Assembly: GCA_016280825.1 (NCBI GenBank)
Contig: JAEEHL010000168.1
Location: 1 to 48,960 of the forward strand
Source of the DNA: Verrucomicrobiota bacterium
GTDB taxonomy: Bacteria > Verrucomicrobiota > Kiritimatiellia > RFP12 > UBA1067
DNA: 48,960 nt
Direction of reading: 5' to 3'
Positions 6,260 through 48,907 of this stretch are shown here, in pieces; the stretch's first letter is position 1; every line of letters begins with the position of its first letter. The translations under genes and the position numbers were made by a program. Under the pieces are notes generated by a model that was not told the origin of the DNA, did not search any database, and saw only the letters and a program-made list of their open reading frames with translations.

Positions 6260-6646
6260 GTGATAAACGTAGCGAACGCGAACGCCTACTTTGCGGGGCG
6301 GACTATCGGGAAGTTCTGGGCGGAATACTCTGGCGAGCAGAAGGAGGCGGCGATTGCGCAGGCTCGCCGCGACCTCGCCCGTGCGGTAGGACGCCCGATG
6401 CGCGACGACGAGCCGCCCTACGCGGAGGGCGACAAGAAGCGCGACGAGTACGCGGTCTACGAGCAGGCGGCGTACACGCTCCTCCGCGATGTGAATCCCG
6501 AAGGCACGGGGGAGGCGTTGCCGTCGCTAAACGGCGACGAGACAAGGCAAAAGAACTCGACCCTTGCAGTCGGGGGGAGCAAGTGGAGCATAGAGGCTCT
6601 GTCGTGGCTGTGCGACAAACTCTCGCTCGTCACGCGGCTCTCGTGA
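6260..6646 (+). CDS. head-tail connector/adaptor (gp6-like) candidate
   Basis: GTG start after gggagg. 128 aa. The N-terminus ANANAYFAGR..W...S.EQKEAAIAQARRDL resembles head-tail adaptor families, and the position fits. Confidence 0.5.
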   Translation: MINVANANAYFAGRTIGKFWAEYSGEQKEAAIAQARRDLARAVGRPMRDDEPPYAEGDKKRDEYAVYEQAAYTLLRDVNPEGTGEALPSLNGDETRQKNSTLAVGGSKWSIEALSWLCDKLSLVTRLS

Positions 6647-6664
6647 CGCACGGAGGGACGGACG

Positions 6665-7927
6665 ATGCCGCCCGAACTACGGAAGTTATTGGCAACCGCC
6701 GACGCCCTCGCCGCAAAAGCGAAGGGCGCGGTTCTTTCCGCGACCCGCGATATTCGCAAGGAGATACTGTTCCTTGCTGGGGAGTTGAACGTCGCGGGGA
6801 GCGCGGAGGCGCGTGAGTCAATCTTCGCGCAGGTGACGAAGCGGTTTGCGAAACTCGGCAAACGCCTCTCCGCCCTGTTCACGTACATGGACGAGACGGC
6901 GGTCAGGCGCGGCGGGCGGGCGGCTTCCGAAAGCACTGGTCTGGAGGTGAAGATTAGCCCCGCACACGCGAAGGCGGTTATCGCCGCAGTCACGAAAGGC
7001 GGCTCGGCGCGGCTTGCGGCTACGATGACGCGCTCAATGAACGACAACATCGTTTCCGCGCTCCGCAACGCGACTGTCTCGGCTTTCCGCGAGCAGGCGG
7101 TGGACGGGCTTACCAACGACGAAATGGCGAAGGTGCTTCTACAGAAGTGGCAAGCCGCCGCCAAAGACCCCGCAAACGTCCAGTTCGTTGACAGGAGCGG
7201 GCGCGTATGGGACACCGAAACGTACATCAACATGAACGTCCGCACCAACGCGATGAACGTCTACAACGACGTTCTTGTGGAAAGCATAGGCAAGGCAACG
7301 GGTTCCGACCTCGTGATGGTGTCGAGCGATGGCGACGCGGACTGCCGCCTGTGCTTCCCGTGGGAGGGGCGCATACTTTCAATCACGGGCAAGACAAGGG
7401 AGTTTCCGACATACGAGGAGGCGAAGGCGGCGGGGCTATTCCACCCGAACTGCGTACACACGCTGGAACCCGTGGACGAGGAACTGGACGCGGACGAAGT
7501 GGAATTACAGCGGAACTTCCCGCCGCCCGCCGACATGACGCCGAGCGCGATGGACGAGCAGAGGTATGAAATCGACATAAACCGCAAAATGATGAACGAG
7601 GGGCTTTCGCTGAAGGAGGCGAAGGTCGCCGTAGACCGCGACAATCTGGCGAACGCCATGCGCGAGGGGCTTGCGAGCGGCAAGGCGGACGAGGTTGTGG
7701 CGAAACTCACGGACGAGCAGGTGAACGCGCTGTGCCCCAACGGAAACCCGCCGAGGTTCGCGCCAGCGAAGGACAATGCGGGCGGCGAGGAGTGGAACAG
7801 GGGGAGCAACGGCGGCGTCCTCTACATCGACAGGAAGGAACTCACCGCCGAAAGGCTCGTGAAGGTGTCGGGCGTCGAGGAGGGCAAGCCCGTCAGGAAA
7901 CCCGACATAAAGGTCGTGCGGTCATGA
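6665..7927 (+). CDS. phage head morphogenesis protein, SPP1 gp7 / Mu F family, with a C-terminal extension
   Basis: Family signature CRLCFPWEGRILSI....FPTYEEAKAAGLFHPNCVHTLEPV, followed by ~150 further residues. Confidence 0.8.
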   Translation: MPPELRKLLATADALAAKAKGAVLSATRDIRKEILFLAGELNVAGSAEARESIFAQVTKRFAKLGKRLSALFTYMDETAVRRGGRAASESTGLEVKISPAHAKAVIAAVTKGGSARLAATMTRSMNDNIVSALRNATVSAFREQAVDGLTNDEMAKVLLQKWQAAAKDPANVQFVDRSGRVWDTETYINMNVRTNAMNVYNDVLVESIGKATGSDLVMVSSDGDADCRLCFPWEGRILSITGKTREFPTYEEAKAAGLFHPNCVHTLEPVDEELDADEVELQRNFPPPADMTPSAMDEQRYEIDINRKMMNEGLSLKEAKVAVDRDNLANAMREGLASGKADEVVAKLTDEQVNALCPNGNPPRFAPAKDNAGGEEWNRGSNGGVLYIDRKELTAERLVKVSGVEEGKPVRKPDIKVVRS

Positions 7928-8397
7928 AGGGCGGGGCGTCGGTAAACTTCAACCTCGAACGAATCGGGGACAATACGCGGAAGCACCTGCTGGTCGCGCT
8001 TGAGCGCATAGGTCTACACGCGATGAGGGAGTCGAAGCGGAACGCGCCGCGCTCCCCGACGATGCGGCAGACCTCGGCGACGCTTATACGCAAGCGCAGG
8101 ACGAAGCGCAAGTCCACCGCAGGGGGGCTGGAGAAGTCGATTGCGCATGAGGTGCGGAGGGCGGGGCTGGACGTAGAGGCGCGTGTATTCGTGCCGCGCA
8201 ACTCCGCCGCAGGCGCATACGCGGCGTACATACACGACTTGAAGGGCGTCCGCTGGTTCAAGCGGGGCATCGGCACTGTGCGCAAGGGCGCGAGGGCGGA
8301 CGAGAAATTCGTCGAAAGGGCGATAAAGGACAATTCCGCCGCATACGGGCGGGCGATACAGGGCGCGGTCGAATCCGCGCTGAAGGAGGGCGAATGA
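7924..8397 (+). CDS. HK97 gp10-like head-tail joining protein (candidate)
   Basis: ATGA overlap with the upstream stop. 157 aa. The ...AMRESKRNAPRSPT... pattern and the position support the call. Confidence 0.5.
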   Translation: MKGGASVNFNLERIGDNTRKHLLVALERIGLHAMRESKRNAPRSPTMRQTSATLIRKRRTKRKSTAGGLEKSIAHEVRRAGLDVEARVFVPRNSAAGAYAAYIHDLKGVRWFKRGIGTVRKGARADEKFVERAIKDNSAAYGRAIQGAVESALKEGE

Positions 8398-8873
8398 TAA
8401 GCGACAGGTTCGAGAAAGCAATGACGAAGGCGGAGCGCGACTGCTTCGACAAGGCTTGCGAAATACTCGGCGTCCGCGAGGGTGTGTCGGCGTTCCTTTC
8501 GGTAAACGGCGGTGCGACCGACTGCATAGTGTTCGACATCGGCTATCCAGAGTCGGGCGAGGTGATGGGCTTCCCCTCGGAGTGCTTTCACTGGCGCGGT
8601 CAGATGGACTTGTACAGCCGCTCCAGACGGCTGTTGCAGGTGTGGCTGATGCGGCTCGTGGCGGCTATGCCGATAGGGACTGTGCAGGCGACGGAGGAGC
8701 GTATGCCCGAAGGGTCGAACGTCCAGTGCTTCCGCATCATGCCGATTACCAACGGAATAACGCCGATAGTGACGACCTCCCTGAAGTACGGGGCGGGCGA
8801 CAAGGGAATTGAGGTCTTTACAAGTACAGTGAATTTTGATATAGTATTCTCTGCTGGAAGCCGAGAAGGTTGA
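8394..8873 (+). CDS. hypothetical neck/tail completion protein
   Basis: ATGA coupling. 159 aa, located between the head-tail joining and major tail genes. Confidence 0.55.
   Translation: MISDRFEKAMTKAERDCFDKACEILGVREGVSAFLSVNGGATDCIVFDIGYPESGEVMGFPSECFHWRGQMDLYSRSRRLLQVWLMRLVAAMPIGTVQATEERMPEGSNVQCFRIMPITNGITPIVTTSLKYGAGDKGIEVFTSTVNFDIVFSAGSREG
8817..8845 (+). promoter_or_regulatory. promoter TTTACA-N17-TGaTATAGT upstream of the major tail gene
   Basis: -35 at 8817-8822 and extended -10 at 8837-8845, inside the 3' end of the preceding CDS. Confidence 0.5.
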
Positions 8874-8911
8874 ACAGCGCAACACGCAACAACAGGAAAG
8901 GAGCGGAAAAC

Positions 8912-9568
8912 ATGGCAACGACATTCTTTGGCCCCACCTCGCCCTTCGGGACGCTTACGGGATGGGAGGTTCAGGACGACAATCCGACGACCACGCAGAC
9001 GAGGGCGCAGGCACTCGGCTCCGACGGCGACGAGATTGCGAAGCGACTCCACGACGCGAAGACCACCGTGACCGCGAACTACACGCTGAAGAACGCGACG
9101 GGATGCAAAATCCCGAAGTTCGGTGAAATCCTCGGCGGCTACCATGTTGACAGCGTGACAATCACCTTCGGCAACACGGCTTTCGTCACAATGTCGCTCA
9201 CGGGTCACAAGCACGGGGCGAGCGCACATCCCGCTTGCCGCACGTACACTGGCTCGCTTGCGCAGATTGCGTCCAACTTCGGTTGCCCGTCGTCCGTCGT
9301 CGGCATGACCCTCCCTGCGAACGCGGGCGTCAGGTCGATGACCTACAACCTACAGGGCAACCATCAGGACGAACTCGGCTCGGCTGGCGACTTCCTCGCG
9401 GCTGACAACTACGACGGCTACGAGACAGTGGACTGCGAACTCTGCGACAGCGGCACAATCTCTGCGGCGGCGGGCTGGGACTTGACGAGCGTCAGCAACG
9501 GCTTTTCAAACACGGCGGCGACCACGGCGAGCGCGACTGTCGAGAAGCATATTGCGCATAGCACCTGA
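8912..9568 (+). CDS. major tail protein (candidate)
   Basis: ATG 8912 follows SD aggaaaggagcgg. 218 aa, Thr/Gly-rich, followed by a stem-loop and then the chaperone-position gene and the tape measure. Confidence 0.5.
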   Translation: MATTFFGPTSPFGTLTGWEVQDDNPTTTQTRAQALGSDGDEIAKRLHDAKTTVTANYTLKNATGCKIPKFGEILGGYHVDSVTITFGNTAFVTMSLTGHKHGASAHPACRTYTGSLAQIASNFGCPSSVVGMTLPANAGVRSMTYNLQGNHQDELGSAGDFLAADNYDGYETVDCELCDSGTISAAAGWDLTSVSNGFSNTAATTASATVEKHIAHST

Positions 9569-9588
9569 CGCAGTCGCGTTGCAGGTTT

Positions 9589-9619
9589 GGCGGGGGTGTG
9601 CTACCCACACTTCCCCGCC
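9589..9619 (+). other. GC-rich stem-loop after the major tail gene
   Basis: ggcgggggtgtg / cacac-tt-ccccgcc forms an inverted repeat with no U-tract. It may be an attenuator or a stability element. Confidence 0.4.
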
Positions 9620-9657
9620 GACTGCTTCGCGGTCGAACGTGAGGCGGAGGGCAGGGC

Positions 9658-10368
9658 GTGAACTATCTGCTGTACGAAAAGGAGTTTGCCGAACTGAAGG
9701 CGCGTGGGGTGTCGCTCGACGACCTTACCGCCGCCGAGGTCGTGGAACTCGTGAAGGCGGTCGAACGGATGGGGCATCCGTTCCGCGAAAGCAACCTTGA
9801 GGCGGCGGGCTACCCGACAGTCCTCTCGGACGGCACTGTGCTACACAATCTGACAATCGGCGCGACTGTGTGGCTCGACGAATACGCCTCCTCGTGGTGG
9901 TCGTCGGGGAGCAAGGCGTACTTCTGGGCGATGGTCTACGCGCTCGTCAACGGGCGCAGTCGCGAAGCCTTCTGCGGCGAAATGCTGGAGCGCACGGGCG
10001 CGAGGCGGCGCATCGTGGAAATGGCAATCCGCATACACGCGACGGAGGATGAACTGCTTGAGGGCATAGCGCAGGCGGTTCACAGGACGGGCGACGAGAA
10101 GCGGGGCAACGAAGCCGCGCCGACGGACACGGACTGGGGCGAACTCTTGCGGACGCTCGAACTCGCCACGGGAATCCCCGCCGAGGAATGGGTGTGGGGG
10201 CGTTCCTCCGATTGGTGCGTGAGGGAGTTTAGCAAGCACTGCCGCTATATGGACATGGCGAAGGGCGTTGCGTCGCCGAGGATGAAGGGCGACCTCGCCA
10301 GGGCGGCTAACGCGCTCGCCCGCATCCGCTCGTCCATCATGAGGCGGCTCGGCAAGGAGGTGTCATGA
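9658..10368 (+). CDS. hypothetical protein in the tail-assembly-chaperone position
   Basis: GTG start after ggaggg. 236 aa, located between the major tail gene and the tape measure. No slippery heptamer was seen. Confidence 0.5.
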   Translation: MNYLLYEKEFAELKARGVSLDDLTAAEVVELVKAVERMGHPFRESNLEAAGYPTVLSDGTVLHNLTIGATVWLDEYASSWWSSGSKAYFWAMVYALVNGRSREAFCGEMLERTGARRRIVEMAIRIHATEDELLEGIAQAVHRTGDEKRGNEAAPTDTDWGELLRTLELATGIPAEEWVWGRSSDWCVREFSKHCRYMDMAKGVASPRMKGDLARAANALARIRSSIMRRLGKEVS

Positions 10369-25851: not shown

Positions 25852-25886
25852 CTATAAAATACAATAAAATATAATATAATATATTA
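25852..25886. other. AT-rich island (35 bp almost pure A/T), preceded by C9 and C6 tracts
   Basis: ctataaaatacaataaaatataatataatatatta sits in an otherwise GC-rich genome. C9 at 25832-25840 and C6 at 25845-25850. Confidence 0.8.
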
Positions 25887-25947
25887 GTCTACGCCGTAGT
25901 ACGGCGAAGACTACGCCGTAGTATGCGACGGACTACGCCGTAGTATA
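25887..25947. repeat. iteron/operator array 1: three copies of CTACGCCGTAGTA at exact 22-bp spacing
   Basis: Copies start at 25889, 25911 and 25933. The core ACTACGCCGTAGT is a 13-bp palindrome about its central base. Confidence 0.85.
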
Positions 25948-26071: not shown

Positions 26072-26095
26072 CATTGGAAATTTTCAAATTTTCAC

Positions 26096-26124
26096 TTTAC
26101 AAATATGCGAAAATTTGGTATAAT
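26096..26124 (+). promoter_or_regulatory. early promoter TTTACA-N17-TGgTATAAT
   Basis: -35 at 26096-26101 and -10 at 26119-26124. The spacer aatatgcgaaaatttgg is shared with three other promoters. An A-tract repeat aaattttcaaattttca lies upstream. Confidence 0.7.
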
Positions 26125-26203
26125 TCATAACCGTCAAGAGGGGAATAGGCCAAGTGGCCGACCCCCGACCCTTGGCAAGACGGGAAAAATGACGGAGGTT
26201 GAG

Positions 26204-45123: not shown

Positions 45124-45235
45124 CGTTTTGCCCTTGAAAATAGGGGCTAAAAAAATTTCAAGATTTTTTTCGCCCATAAAATAAGGGCGAAACGCGACTA
45201 ACATCAAAAACACCCTTATTTTTCAAGGGGTTTTT
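45124..45235. repeat. three phased palindromic motifs (T/A-tract-GCCC-N9-11-GGGG/C-A/T-tract)
   Basis: 45124-45155, 45168-45192 (perfect tttcgccc-N9-gggcgaaa) and 45206-45235, with centres ~41-42 bp apart. Same class as 25997-26071. Confidence 0.75.
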
Positions 45236-45241
45236 CGTATC

Positions 45242-45271
45242 TTTACAAACATACGGAAAATGTGCTATAAT
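45242..45271 (+). promoter_or_regulatory. promoter TTTACA-N18-TGcTATAAT for the 45.3-48.3 kb cassette
   Basis: -35 at 45242-45247 and -10 at 45266-45271. The spacer aacatacggaaaatgtgc is of the family type. Confidence 0.7.
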
Positions 45272-45352
45272 ATTGGCGTTCCTGCGGGACAGGTGAAAGC
45301 GCGGTGCTTCCCCGCCTGTGGGACGGGTCAAAACAAGAAAGGGTCAAAAACA

Positions 45353-45499
45353 ATGATTAACGAAATTGACAAGGAGGTTGCGAAGTTTGCCGCCCTCTAC
45401 GTCATCGACAACGCCGAGACGCTGGGTATCAGGGTGAAGGACGTTCCTCATGGGCCGCACCTCCGTCCCGCTCCGTACTTCGCAGGAATCATTCACTAA
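45353..45499 (+). CDS. small hypothetical protein (48 aa)
   Basis: First ORF after the promoter, with leader aagaaagggtcaaaaaca. Confidence 0.45.
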   Translation: MINEIDKEVAKFAALYVIDNAETLGIRVKDVPHGPHLRPAPYFAGIIH

Positions 45500-45529
45500 T
45501 CATCAACCCCAACAGAAAGGAACCCTACA

Positions 45530-46345
45530 ATGAACACGATAAACGAAAACGAAGTCCGCCTCGCCAACCTGAAGGCCTCCGCCGATAAACGCCGTGCGGA
45601 GTTTTGCGACATCCGCGCCGAGGTGACGCGCCAGATAGCGAAAATCATCGAGGACGCCGTCGCCGCAAGCGGCGTCAGCGGCTACACGCTCCGCAAAGGC
45701 GAGAACGGGGAACTCCGCGACACGGAGTACATGACGCTGGACGGTGAAATCGACGGCGAGCGTCTGCACGACATCGACCTCTACTACCGCAACGACTCGT
45801 GGCGCGACGAGGACGGCGGCGAGCGCGTCTTCTCGGTGAATACCTGTTGTTTCGGCCGTGTGAAGGCTGGCGACAAGAGCGGCGTTGCCTACTACCTCCT
45901 CATGGGCTACCTCGTCACTCACCTTCAGGAGATTCAGGACGCGCTGAACGCCATCCCCGACTGGGAGGCCTACAATCGCTCCCGCCGCATCTACCACATC
46001 AGCCGCAACGATGCGGAGGCGTTCGAGCGCAAGATGGACGCGGAGGCAAAGATGGCGAAGGAAGCCGCCGTGCTGGAGCGGCTTATGGAGGGCGCGGAAA
46101 TTGCCGTCCACTACACGACGGACTTCGACCTCGTGCGCGGCGTCCACGTCCTGACGGGCATTAAGATCATGACCGTCGAGAAGGTCACGAACAAACTCGT
46201 GTTCTTCAAAGACCGCAGGGGGCAGAACAAGAAGGCGGACGTCGTCGCCAACCTTGTACGCGGCATCGACAATTGCGGCTGGTCGTTTGCGGCGGACGTT
46301 GACATGGCCTTTCCCCGCGACTGCAAGGACGGCGCGAACTTCTAA
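45530..46345 (+). CDS. hypothetical protein (271 aa)
   Basis: The leader gaaaggaaccctacaATG is identical to that of the 47031 gene. No motif was recognised. Confidence 0.65.
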   Translation: MNTINENEVRLANLKASADKRRAEFCDIRAEVTRQIAKIIEDAVAASGVSGYTLRKGENGELRDTEYMTLDGEIDGERLHDIDLYYRNDSWRDEDGGERVFSVNTCCFGRVKAGDKSGVAYYLLMGYLVTHLQEIQDALNAIPDWEAYNRSRRIYHISRNDAEAFERKMDAEAKMAKEAAVLERLMEGAEIAVHYTTDFDLVRGVHVLTGIKIMTVEKVTNKLVFFKDRRGQNKKADVVANLVRGIDNCGWSFAADVDMAFPRDCKDGANF

Positions 46346-46395
46346 CGACCCGCAAAGGAAAGGAGCAAACGACATGATTATCGAACGCAAACCCA

Positions 46396-46689
46396 ATGTC
46401 CGTTCAGGAAGCCTACGCAATCGCCCGTCAGTTGATTGCGCAGGCCAAGGCGAACGCGCTGTCCGCCTACAACAAGGCGTTCTCGGACTTCCAGCGCAAG
46501 CACGGGTTCTTCACCCACCGCGAGGAGCGCGACTACGAGCATCACGGCGACGGCTGGCGTCACATGAAGACCTACACGGCTCCCGACGGCGCGAACTTCT
46601 ACGAGGTCGTCCAGTACCCCGCGCAGGAATACGGCCTCCGAGTGGAATACTGGAGCGACGACGCCGTTTCGACAATCGCATACCTCTGA
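46396..46689 (+). CDS. hypothetical protein (97 aa)
   Basis: The frame looks coding. The strong SD aaaggaaaggagc actually precedes an out-of-frame ATG at 46374. Confidence 0.5.
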   Translation: MSVQEAYAIARQLIAQAKANALSAYNKAFSDFQRKHGFFTHREERDYEHHGDGWRHMKTYTAPDGANFYEVVQYPAQEYGLRVEYWSDDAVSTIAYL

Positions 46690-46713
46690 ACCCGAACGAA
46701 AGAAGGAGCGGAC

Positions 46714-47004
46714 ATGAAAAGGCAAAGCGACTTCCAGCAGTATAAGGGCGTTATCGAAGACCTCGGCTACGGGTCGAGAATGGGCGAGGAAATCCCCGCC
46801 ACCACCACCTACCGCGAAGCCGTCGTGGAACTGACGTACTACATCGGGATGGCGAACGAGCGGGGCGAACCCTTCAATGTGGAGGTGTTCGGCGACGGGT
46901 ACGACGCGCCCGTTCCGTCCGTTCGCAGGGCGTACTTCAGGGCAAAGCGGCTCTTGAAGAAGTTCTCCGCCGTCCCCAATCCCAACAGCCGCCTAAACAA
47001 CTAA
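46714..47004 (+). CDS. hypothetical protein (96 aa)
   Basis: SD gaaggagcgg. Confidence 0.6.
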   Translation: MKRQSDFQQYKGVIEDLGYGSRMGEEIPATTTYREAVVELTYYIGMANERGEPFNVEVFGDGYDAPVPSVRRAYFRAKRLLKKFSAVPNPNSRLNN

Positions 47005-47030
47005 ACAACCCAAACGAAAGGAACCCTACA

Positions 47031-47831
47031 ATGCTCACGAAAACCGAAATTGAAACCTGTTGCGCGAACCTGATGCAACGCTTCAACGCGCTGGAGGAGA
47101 CGCGGCGGAACGTCGCAAAGGCGTTCGACACCGCCATCGGACGCCGCCTGTCCGCCCTTGTGGAGAACGGGCTGGGTCGCTACAACATCCCCGACGACCG
47201 CAATTCAGCCAGCGCCCGTTTCTTCTCCAGCAACGCGCTGAAGTCCTCTGGGTGCCGTTGCTACTTCATCTGGGACAACGACCGCAAGACGCTCGTAATG
47301 GGATTCTGCCCCGCGAACGAGTACAACCTGTCGGGCGGAATCCGCTACCTCCAGATATACGCCCAGCGTCGTGAAGAGAGGAAGGGCGCGGACGAGGTGC
47401 GCGCAACGTTTCAGGTTGACGGGCTGTGCAATACGCACTACCTCACCGCGTCGTTGCGCGACAACAGCCTCTGCGACGCCCCATACCTCATGTTCTCGGA
47501 GGAGACGCGCAAGAACTGCAACGGCAATACCCGCAACCCCCTAGAAGACTACATCCGCAACCCGAAGGACGTTCAGGCTCTCGTGGACGCGAATAACGCC
47601 CTGAAGGAGTACGAGCGGCGGCTCCATCGCATCGCCCACCTCATGGAAGCGGCTTCGGAGATACTGTCGGCTCTGGAGTCCCGCTTTGACTGCACGGAGA
47701 AGGAGCGCGACGAGCGCGTCCGCTTCATCTTTGGGCTGTCGGGCGAGTGCGCGACCCCGCTCGCTACAGTGTACCGCGTCAAGTTGTCGCCAGAACCCTA
47801 CGCCGCGCCTACGGACGGCAGTGCAGAATAG
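47031..47831 (+). CDS. hypothetical protein (266 aa)
   Basis: The leader is identical to that of the 45530 gene, and the size is similar. No motif was recognised. Confidence 0.65.
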   Translation: MLTKTEIETCCANLMQRFNALEETRRNVAKAFDTAIGRRLSALVENGLGRYNIPDDRNSASARFFSSNALKSSGCRCYFIWDNDRKTLVMGFCPANEYNLSGGIRYLQIYAQRREERKGADEVRATFQVDGLCNTHYLTASLRDNSLCDAPYLMFSEETRKNCNGNTRNPLEDYIRNPKDVQALVDANNALKEYERRLHRIAHLMEAASEILSALESRFDCTEKERDERVRFIFGLSGECATPLATVYRVKLSPEPYAAPTDGSAE

Positions 47832-47852
47832 ACAGGACGGAAGGAGGCTGAT

Positions 47853-48305
47853 ATGACCCTTGCAGAAGTAGCCCAAGAACTCGGCTGTTCCATCGCCCAA
47901 GCCAGACCAGCCCACCGTCGCCTTATGGCGGCGTTGAAGCGGGAGGGCGAGGCGTTTCTGGCCGATGAGCGCAGGCGCATGGAGGAGCGCGAGAAGCGCA
48001 AGTCACGACCCCCTCGCCGCCGCCTCCCCCAATGGTGCAGGCCGTTCTGGGAGCGCCGCGACGGAGCGCAACACATCGTTTACTGTTCCGCCAAGCGCAG
48101 GCACGACAAGGAGCCGACGACCGCCTTCTGGCTCTGGTTCAACGGACAGCCTGTCGCCAAGTCCGATACTCTCGACGGGGCGAAGAGCCTTACCGCTCTT
48201 CGGGCGATGCTTTACGACACCTATGTCTGGGACGCTTCCCAGTGGGAGGACGAGTTGCGGAACAATCCCCAGATAGCCGAGGTGCGCAAGGCCTGCGGCG
48301 TTTAG
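47853..48305 (+). CDS. HTH DNA-binding protein (sigma-70 region 4-like N-terminus)
   Basis: MTLAEVAQELGCSIAQARPAHRRLMAALKRE resembles region-4/LuxR-type HTH. SD ggaaggagg. Last gene before the terminators and iteron array 2. Confidence 0.55.
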   Translation: MTLAEVAQELGCSIAQARPAHRRLMAALKREGEAFLADERRRMEEREKRKSRPPRRRLPQWCRPFWERRDGAQHIVYCSAKRRHDKEPTTAFWLWFNGQPVAKSDTLDGAKSLTALRAMLYDTYVWDASQWEDELRNNPQIAEVRKACGV

Positions 48306-48332
48306 ATTTTGCGAATCGGGCGATACGACCCG

Positions 48333-48358
48333 CCTTGCGACTTGACCCCGCAAGGTTT
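48333..48358 (+). terminator. hairpin ccttgcg/cgcaagg followed by ttt
   Basis: 7-bp stem, 9-nt loop, short T-run. Confidence 0.4.
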
Positions 48359-48374
48359 AACAGCCCGACTTCGC

Positions 48375-48415
48375 GCGGCGGAAGGACTTTGACCCCTTCC
48401 GCCGCTTTTTGTTTT
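48375..48415 (+). terminator. strong intrinsic terminator
   Basis: gcggcggaagg (48375-48385) pairs with ccttccgccgc (48395-48405), followed by tttttgtttt. Confidence 0.8.
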
Positions 48416-48421
48416 CCCTGC

Positions 48422-48543
48422 CACTACGCCGCCCGTATCGACTACGCCTAGACTACGGGCTACTTTCCAGCGGACTACGGCGTAGTATGCCGCCTACTAC
48501 ATCGTAGTCTAGGGATTAGTATGTTATAAACTACGGCGTAGGC
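48422..48543. repeat. iteron/operator array 2 (six full or half ACTACGSCGTAGT sites)
   Basis: Site centres are near 48429, 48447, 48458, 48480 (perfect gactacggcgtagta), 48502 (tactacatcgtagtc) and 48535. Spacings are about 18/11/22/22/33 bp. Confidence 0.8.
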
Positions 48544-48582
48544 TAAATTATATTATATTATTCATGTATTATTATAATTTTA
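48544..48582. other. AT-rich island 2, followed by a G6 tract
   Basis: taaattatattatattattcatgtattattataatttta. Its reverse complement aligns with island 1 (25852-25886). Confidence 0.8.
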
Positions 48583-48606
48583 GGGGGGTACTATATACGC
48601 GCATAC

Positions 48607-48618
48607 GCGCACGTGCGC
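48607..48618. repeat. perfect 12-bp GC palindrome GCGCACGTGCGC
   Basis: Read directly. It is embedded in acgcgcatacgcgcacgtgcgcg, and a related gcgcgttatgcgcg sits at 25787-25800 in module 1. Confidence 0.7.
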
Positions 48619-48877: not shown

Positions 48878-48907
48878 TTGACACATTCCGCATCATTGTG
48901 ATACAAT
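48878..48907 (+). promoter_or_regulatory. late-type promoter TTGACA-N18-TGaTACAAT reading out of the window
   Basis: -35 at 48878-48883 and -10 at 48902-48907. It presumably drives terS/terL in a circular or permuted map. Confidence 0.6.

Follow-up and report, generated by a model that had tools for sequence, protein, structure and literature searches.

We studied a six-gene unit, referred to here as the cassette, in contig JAEEHL010000168.1, which was analyzed from position 1 to 48,960 (the window). All genes in the window lie on the plus strand, GC content is ∼60%, and the cassette follows rusA near the window's 3′ end. A preliminary description of this DNA, made from its letters, had placed the cassette between rusA and the packaging side, and we agree: the upstream neighbor matches the Pfam RusA family (8e-16), and the packaging side is identified through relatives, in which TerS lies ∼600–800 nt downstream of the cassette terminator; the window itself stops ∼650 nt past the cassette, short of TerS. 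The six open reading frames (ORFs) of 48, 271, 97, 96, 266, and 150 amino acids (aa) reported at this place, here P1 to P6, were confirmed, and they have homologs in other contigs. What we could not uphold is their description as a self-contained six-gene system, because the pattern of gene presence and absence across related loci points to a constant chassis on which only P2 is always kept and the other genes are exchangeable cargo. Coordinates are collected in Table 1.

Table 1. Features of the cassette and its upstream region (UTR, untranslated region; HTH, helix-turn-helix; dN/dS, ratio of nonsynonymous to synonymous substitution rates; fractions of loci refer to complete loci as defined in the text).
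Feature	Position	Strand	Description	Basis or remark
Nested palindromes, long hairpin	45125..45193	+	between RusA stop and promoter	inverted repeats, RNA folding
Terminator-like hairpin	45207..45235	+	AAAAACACCCTT-loop-AAGGGGTTTTT	just before −35
Operator-like inverted repeat	45232..45260	+	TTTTC-N19-GAAAA bracketing the −35 hexamer	3 window matches vs 0.25 expected
Sigma-70-type promoter	45242..45271	+	TTTACA-18-TATAAT, extended −10 TG	11/12 consensus positions
Conserved 5′ UTR	45272..45352	+	ends GAAAGGGTCAAnAAA-ATG	alignment of loci
P1	45353..45499	+	48 aa	variable first-slot gene
P2	45530..46345	+	271 aa, acidic (pI 5.3), soluble	12/12 loci; dN/dS 0.54
P3	46374..46689	+	97-aa ORF from 46396; ancestral start 46374	homolog alignment
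P4	46714..47004	+	96 aa	cargo gene; 3/12 loci; 95% identity
P5	47031..47831	+	266 aa	5/12 loci; dN/dS 0.59
P6	47853..48305	+	150 aa, basic; possible N-terminal HTH (sub-threshold)	2/12 loci
Hairpin H1	48332..48356	+	stem CCTTGCG/CGCAAGG, loop ACTTGACCC, no U-run	folding, covariance model
Hairpin H2, intrinsic terminator	48375..48415	+	11-bp GC-rich stem, loop ACTTTGACC, then TTTTTGTTTT	folding

Homologs of P2 (n = 23) are all metagenomic and ∼270 aa long. Seventeen loci were retrieved (cited by L number where they have to be told apart), 12 of which reach all the way from RusA to the hairpins at the 3′ end and are termed complete loci. P2 holds a fixed syntenic position in all 12 and is the sole gene present in every one, whereas P3 is found in 8, P5 in 5, P4 and P1 in 3 each, and P6 in 2, with ∼20 other small ORF families, many of them singletons, filling the remaining slots. 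Only one other locus (L017) carries the series P2-P3-(one extra gene)-P4-P5-P6, and the genes are thus not co-inherited as a set. The proposal that the cassette is an accessory module stands in part: most of its genes come and go among relatives, but P2 is universal and P3 highly conserved. Indeed, universal conservation of the cassette in syntenic core positions had been named beforehand as an observation that would refute the proposal, and P2, though not the cargo around it, presents this; the other such observation, an ordinary core function (TerS or structural), was not returned by any search. All six ORFs have native codon usage, with GC content at third codon positions (GC3) of 0.69–0.85, similar to that of rusA. 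In L004, most of P3 is replaced by a block of seven genes (6352-9796) that have ATGA start/stop overlaps and lack the GAAAGGAAC junction described below; codons 64-97 of P3 remain, two of the seven genes belong to PHROGs of no known function, and the block looks like a foreign insertion into the cassette. When 10 cargo proteins from relatives were scanned against PHROGs, two families only were returned, both of unknown function.

The near-consensus promoter claimed for the cassette is well supported, as it combines 11 of 12 consensus matches with a TG extension and its 30-nt motif occurs at the same position in 8 relatives. Promoter, upstream palindrome, and 5′ UTR align across six loci, and the promoter, the first upstream palindrome, and the 5′ UTR are kept in all 12 complete loci. 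The 5′ UTR, which shows no significant structure on folding (z = 0.26), is retained whatever gene comes first, be it P1, F8, F11, F14, or, in L004, P2 directly. The three palindromes reported upstream are also real: three inverted repeats lie between 45141 and 45235, and the region, folded as RNA, reaches −49.7 kcal/mol (z = −5.3). The first element of the nested palindromes, TTTTGCCCTT..GGGG.AAAA, is conserved in relatives and also stands upstream of an early promoter at 26.1 kb, and CGTTTTGCCCTT palindromes precede both promoters. The hairpin just before the −35 hexamer looks like the end of the preceding early (RusA) operon; relatives have a different hairpin at its position. The early promoter at 26097-26126 (cTTTACAaatatgcgaaaatttgGTATAAT, in the segment 26089-26126) is a near-copy of the cassette promoter, spacer included, and carries the same TTTTC..GAAAA arrangement (26089-26113). 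That bracket is missing from the late promoter (48878-48907), a near-consensus TTGACA-18-TACAAT with TG located ∼470 nt beyond the cassette terminator. Because the cassette and early promoters share sequence, bracket, and upstream palindromes, we infer that the cassette is one of the early-class transcription units and shares its regulator with the early genes. Since it has a promoter of its own and is set off by a terminator-like hairpin on its 5′ side and a strong terminator on its 3′ side, the unit is predicted to be transcriptionally autonomous, as had been suggested.

The cassette ends in two hairpins that had been taken for tandem terminators. H2 is a canonical intrinsic terminator, with an 11-bp stem (hairpin proper, 48375-48405) and a U-run after it, but H1 has the stem only and no U-run. 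Together, the region folds at −52.8 kcal/mol (z = −6.9). All loci that reach the 3′ end have the pair, whatever the last gene is, and both hairpins have the same invariant 9-nt loop, ACUUGACCC (ACUU(U)GACC(C)), the core of which, GACTTGACCCC, is found in 13 of 17 loci. The stems, on the other hand, vary (CCTTGCG, CCGTG, GGTAATG, GGCTGG, GGAAGG, GGAGGG). Among 11 distinct instances, 86% of stem cells are paired as compared to 59% in shuffles, 7 of 8 stem pairs show a compensatory change, and the covariation score (0.71 vs 0.21) was reached by 0 of 500 shuffles, although these statistics overstate independence because the 11 instances mix two paralogous hairpins. A covariance model gives two matches per locus (one in L015, and none in L013, where the contig ends first); the matches sit only at the cassette 3′ end, with nothing else significant in 221 kb, and neither hairpin has a match in Rfam. 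Such constancy of the loop while the stems change suggests that a protein recognizes it. The hairpin pair with its conserved loop is a detail first noticed in this analysis.

Within the cassette, the genes are joined in a uniform manner. The junction (C)GAAAGGAAC-N6-ATG precedes almost every gene of the unit across loci and is found before P3, P4, X144, F6, F7, F25, and, in relatives, also TerS; on the plus strand of the window, this type of ribosome-binding site (RBS) occurs seven times, three of them in the cassette. The preliminary description had drawn attention to near-identical leaders of P2 and P5 as a possible sign of divergent paralogs. The repeat exists (45508-45572 vs 47009-47073, 65 nt, 77% identity), and an exact 18-mer, GAAAGGAACCCTACAATG, occurs twice only in the window (0.01 expected). 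However, because the same junction precedes most cassette genes and TerS, the leader is the generic GAAAGGAAC ribosome-binding junction and is not special to the pair, and the spacers of the two leaders differ in relatives. Likewise, the weak N-terminal resemblance of the two proteins amounts to 7 of 14 ungapped identities, as read from the sequence, but extends no further. Paralogy itself found no support in BLASTP (E = 3.5) or in the profile-profile alignment that had been proposed as its check (hhalign probability 0.6% for the whole proteins and ≤2.3% for sub-domains); in Foldseek searches of BFVD, the P5 model did not match the one protein matched by P2, and the two had no significant match in common. 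The models do share the order of their elements: a long helix at the N-terminus is followed by a beta-sheet and then by another long helix. On either side of P4 stands a copy of the AACCCRAACGAAAGRA junction, as would be expected if cargo enters by recombination at short junction homologies. An exact 17-nt repeat, GACGGCGCGAACTTCTA, is present at the 3′ end of P2 (46328-46344) and inside P3 (46585-46601), reading DGANF in both, and the C-terminus of P2 in the window is unlike that of all relatives; the two may be a footprint of recombination.

P2 was modeled with a predicted local distance difference test score (pLDDT) of 88.7 and a predicted template modeling score (pTM) of 0.69, as two units of a long helix and a beta-meander. 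Foldseek found no fold match for this model in the PDB (best E = 0.023, template modeling [TM] score <0.3) and one uncharacterized phage protein in BFVD (A0A6J5KWE5, E = 2e-6, TM 0.54-0.60). For P5, one of five models was good (pLDDT 75), and nothing was matched in BFVD. At similar synonymous divergence (dS ∼0.6), dN/dS is 0.54 for P2 and 0.59 for P5 as compared to 0.08 for RusA and 0.125 for P3, i.e., nonsynonymous evolution in P2 and P5 (dN/dS ∼0.55) is ∼5-7 times faster than in RusA or P3; TerS and ParB are, by eye, nearly identical across the same loci. Both proteins are predicted to be soluble, both ORFs are intact, and the P2 fold is confident despite heavy amino acid divergence. The changes are localized: in P2 they fall in aa 31-40, 81-100, and 191-210 while the helices are conserved, and in P5 a central beta-domain (aa 81-170) is hypervariable between conserved terminal helices. 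A conserved helical scaffold with a fast-changing beta-domain would suit a protein whose binding partner keeps changing. P5 also has a CC and a CxC motif, C10 and C11 (47058-47063) and C75 and C77 (47253-47261), invariant in all nine sequences, which may form a metal-binding site joining the N-terminal helix to the first beta-strand.

Sequence searches assigned none of these proteins. P2 and P5 had no tblastn match at E up to 1 among 50,697 GenBank phages, and PDB sequence and profile searches with P2, P3, P4, P5, and P6 returned nothing. Pfam, PHROGs, PADLOC, and NCBIfam, searched with all six proteins and with all members of the P2 and P6 families, gave nothing at threshold; the PADLOC scan yielded noise only (E = 0.0038 and 0.037) and no match to a known anti-phage defense. 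A superinfection-exclusion protein of the membrane type was rejected as a candidate since none of the six proteins has a hydrophobic or transmembrane segment, and of the roles first suggested, exclusion in that form is therefore disfavored, while anti-defense, or exclusion by other means, may still apply.

The remaining genes are a mixed group. P1 homologs (82-84% identity) occur in L002 and L009 only, and the L002 form is 81 aa long. P3 is 81-97% identical among its homologs, with a remnant in L004 in addition to the complete loci counted above. Compared to six relatives, P3 of the window has a 1-nt insertion after codon 3 that puts the ancestral start and its GAAAGGAG RBS out of frame; the 97-aa ORF begins instead at a new ATG (46374-46398 region), created by a GTG/CGT-to-ATG change and not preceded by an RBS. 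The insertion may be genuine, and P3 then truly frameshifted, or it may stem from the assembly. P6 has a conserved C-terminal domain (PQWCxPFWERRDGxQHIVY...), and an exhaustive HMMER search found seven clusters only among 1.84 billion representatives; distant homologs were found in the company of early genes on a phage contig unrelated to this one. The HTH reported in this protein is plausible but not established, as all matches are sub-threshold: the best in Pfam is EutK_C (E = 0.013, 15.9 bits vs a cut-off of 27.5), Sigma70_r4_2, HTH_23, and HTH_36 appear at E of about 0.05-0.09 in single members of the family, HTH models other than EutK_C scoring 0.05-0.2 overall, and the region itself is found only in the window protein and in P0032.

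The window begins inside the large terminase gene, where ORF 57-608 reads as the C-terminal nuclease part (relatives of this ORF carry Terminase_3C), and related contigs, which span 55-58 kb, continue after the cassette with TerS, a ParB_N protein, several DNA-modification-type genes, MetK, and TerL. Because the start of TerL is truncated and relatives continue in this way, we conclude that the window is a phage genome cut within its packaging region; the contig is without ∼6-9 kb that relatives hold, comprising TerS, ParB_N, the modification genes, MetK, and the N-terminus of TerL. The cassette closes the early (recombination) arm, which runs through YqaJ, DUF1351, RecT, and dUTPase (the latter two seen in relatives) to RusA. 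The phage has no DNA similarity to the 50,697 GenBank phages, its portal is 22% identical to that of the nearest of them, and it belongs to an undescribed, uncultured lineage of tailed phages of gut type. Rfam and tRNA scans of the window returned nothing. A methyltransferase gene of the Methyltransf_24 class (514-1257, Pfam 3.9e-16) lies between the terminase and portal genes. In relatives, the interval from ParB to TerL (L001 14305-19812, L002 9827-14205, L004 12921-18416, L006 12845-17394) has Pfam matches to TAGT, Ploopntkinase3, APH-like, CTP_transf_like, acetyltransferase, and S-adenosylmethionine synthetase families, which are typical of thymidine hypermodification pathways and therefore suggest that the DNA of this phage lineage is modified.

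Arrays of a 13-bp palindrome, ACTACGCCGTAGT, stand beside an AT-rich tract at two places, 25860-25945, just upstream of the early promoter, and 48424-48580, just after the cassette terminator. The two are mutually inverted, one with three copies at 22-nt spacing and the other with about five, and the palindrome has 17 matches in the window as compared to 4.2 expected. Relatives keep this architecture with other palindromes (ACTAGCCCCTAGT, ACTACAnnGTAG), and the repeats differ even between phages with 90% identical P2 (ACTACGSCGTAG in L001, ACTAGSSSCTAG in L016). P2 was rejected as a binder of the downstream repeats for want of covariation, as were TerS and ParB, both nearly identical by eye across phages with different repeats. 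An origin-, operator-, or centromere-like role is conceivable for the arrays. At 48585-48615, after the AT-rich tract and before the late promoter, there is an alternating purine-pyrimidine tract (acgcgcatacgcgcacgtgcgcg in the window, cacgcgtgtgtgcgcgtgtgcgcg in relatives), placed likewise in L001, L002, L004, L006, L015, and L016.

The unit thus has the look of a phage accessory region of the usual sort, and not of a system defined by its six genes. Its chassis, kept in every relative, is made up of a host-type sigma-70 promoter with an operator-like repeat shared with the early promoter, a 5′ UTR, uniform GAAAGGAAC junctions, and the two terminal hairpins. We tentatively favor, while giving it slightly less than an even chance, an early accessory operon on this conserved expression chassis, in which P2 and the frequent cargo P5 are fast-evolving proteins of the binding type, most likely aimed at components of the host or of competitors. 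Host RNA polymerase would read the operon simultaneously with the early genes, and the proteins would bind host or competing-phage components, in counter-defense or host takeover, instead of acting as enzymes or virion parts. The uniform junctions would favor exchange of cargo by recombination, the slots being filled from no fewer than 20 families of small ORFs, and the six genes would not form one machine. We favor a host-interaction role because variable, fast-evolving genes between conserved flanks fit the definition of a phage accessory region, and it is also in its favor that the six proteins matched no core, structural, enzymatic, or defense family. Several points weigh on the other side. 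No cassette protein has a functional assignment, and counter-defense is suggested by context; the unannotated status does not single out the cassette, since most genes of the phage are without annotation. A dN/dS of ∼0.55 is below 1 and could reflect relaxed constraint instead of an arms race. The occurrence of P2 in every complete locus argues against its being dispensable, and its universality, like the high conservation of P3, is core-like behavior. The early timing is deduced from the similarity of promoters. Finally, scans of IMG/VR with P2, P5, and the profiles A1, A8, and A6 found no relatives, and the P2 and P3 profiles had no match in GTDB genomes, so no host could be assigned.

The same observations can be read differently. 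The ORFs may be functionally unrelated and largely dispensable selfish or filler genes of the nin-region type that happen to lie behind a common second early promoter and are not directed at the host, a reading that we consider unlikely yet deserving of some weight. High turnover of cargo, the many ORFans throughout the phage, and a P3 that is apparently frameshifted in the window with no obvious consequence would all be accounted for, but filler does not explain why none of the 12 complete loci has lost the chassis or P2, why the P2 and P5 ORFs stay intact and the P2 fold confident through heavy divergence, or why P3 and P4 show strong purifying selection or near-identity. Somewhat more doubtful is a regulatory module for the switch from early to late genes, in which P2 or P3 (or P6 in loci that have it) would switch on the late promoter, or would act on termination at the loop-conserved H1/H2 so that transcription runs on to TerS, in a position comparable to that of RinA/ArpU/Alt or Q ahead of the packaging genes. 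In all relatives the unit does come right before the late promoter and TerS, P2 is universal, the invariant ACUUGACCC loop, whose stems covary and which occurs two times in each locus but not elsewhere in 221 kb, resembles a protein-recognized hairpin, and the sub-threshold HTH of P6 is like sigma region 4. However, P6 is present in 2 of 12 loci only, three loci without P3 retain the hairpins, P2 evolves fast as compared to an invariant loop, and NCBIfam, Pfam, and PHROG gave no match to RinA, ArpU, Q, or any DNA- or RNA-binding family; moreover, because the late promoter is near-consensus and lies ∼470 nt past the terminator, neither activation nor read-through should be needed. A bolder version, which we regard as a long shot, would make the chassis a dedicated platform for gene shuffling and expression, with the ACUUGACCC loops of H1 and H2 recognized by a cassette-encoded protein of new fold (P2 or P3) that controls mRNA 3′-end formation or read-through to the late/packaging operon.

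That P2, P3, and P5 make up one coherent multi-component system, with P2 and P5 as divergent paralogs under a regulated leader, is very improbable and has been refuted in large part by gene presence and absence, since 7 of 12 loci lack P5 and 3-4 lack P3. The similar sizes of P2 and P5, the 65-nt similarity of leader and 5′ coding part, the agreement of their first two thirds in the order of elements (long helix, beta-sheet, long helix), fast evolution of both with a variable beta-domain, and the tendency of P3 to lie between them had made the idea attractive, but neither BLASTP nor whole or sub-domain profiles detect homology, the P5 model does not match the BFVD protein of P2, and the leader is a generic junction that unrelated cargo genes and TerS share. 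We give least credence, hardly any, to a replication or partition module in which an initiator-like P2 acts on the repeats and AT-rich tract (48424-48580) and on their inverted twin (25860-25945). An iteron-like array beside an AT-rich tract lies directly downstream, its architecture is conserved in relatives, and no replication initiator was recognized among the 10 largest early-region ORFs scanned; yet no DNA-binding domain was detected, a strong terminator separates the genes from the repeats, and P2 does not covary with the neighboring repeats, which differ where P2 is 90% identical (L001 ACTACGSCGTAG, L016 ACTAGSSSCTAG).

Variable clusters of ORFans at module boundaries are common in phages, and an early accessory operon with host- or competitor-directed P2 and P5 would be nothing surprising in kind. 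If both are counter-defense or takeover proteins, however, P2 and P5 would be new families. They come from a lineage with no cultured or deposited relative, and the fold of P2, predicted with confidence, has no counterpart in the PDB. The promoter-to-hairpin chassis and its uniform junctions provide a simple rule by which more cargo genes may be harvested from metagenomes, and the hairpin pair with its conserved loop offers a small RNA or DNA element that lends itself to testing. Should the ACUUGACCC loop be the target of a cassette protein, this would be an undescribed phage hairpin-protein switch coupled to a fast-evolving host-interaction protein.

Phage accessory regions have been described as variable, fast-evolving genes between conserved flanks, enriched in counter-defense genes, with dispensability and antagonism to host defense as further marks of their genes (Silas et al., bioRxiv 10.1101/2023.04.06.535777). 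The cassette resembles them as a hotspot of variable, unannotated small genes between the conserved RusA and TerS, served by the phage's own expression signals, and the 12 complete loci do have variable content between these flanks. Rapid diversification is seen in P2 (dN/dS 0.54) and P5 (0.59) but not in P3 (0.125) or P4 (95% identity), and the cassette is unlike such regions in that P2 never varies in presence, P3 is very conserved, and a fixed chassis runs from promoter to terminator; a counter-defense role for its genes is putative and suggested here by their context. The cassette also invites comparison with the morons of lambdoid phages, reportedly single genes with their own promoter and terminator inserted between two phage genes. 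It shares with them a sigma-70-like promoter (11/12 + TG), an intrinsic terminator (H2, 11-bp stem + U-run), and a place between two functional modules, but it has multiple genes, a composition like the rest of the genome (GC3 0.69-0.85), and is present in every relative rather than sporadically, with promoter, P2, and hairpins in 12 of 12 loci and only individual cargo genes sporadic. No lysogeny functions were seen for this phage, and expression from a prophage is thus not implied. In siphoviruses of Gram-positive hosts, late-gene activators such as RinA, ArpU, and Alt of TP901-1 are encoded just upstream of terS. The cassette likewise holds the last early genes before the late promoter and TerS, and P6 has a weak sigma-region-4-like HTH; unlike in those phages, there is no hidden Markov model (HMM) match, the last gene differs between relatives, and the late promoter is near-consensus. 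Lastly, the boxB elements (N-utilization sites) of lambda are RNA hairpins recognized by a protein, and H1 and H2 are like them in having a conserved loop on compensating stems and in standing in tandem, but differ in their position at the 3′ end of an operon, in that one of them is a terminator, and in a 9-nt loop with no match in Rfam.

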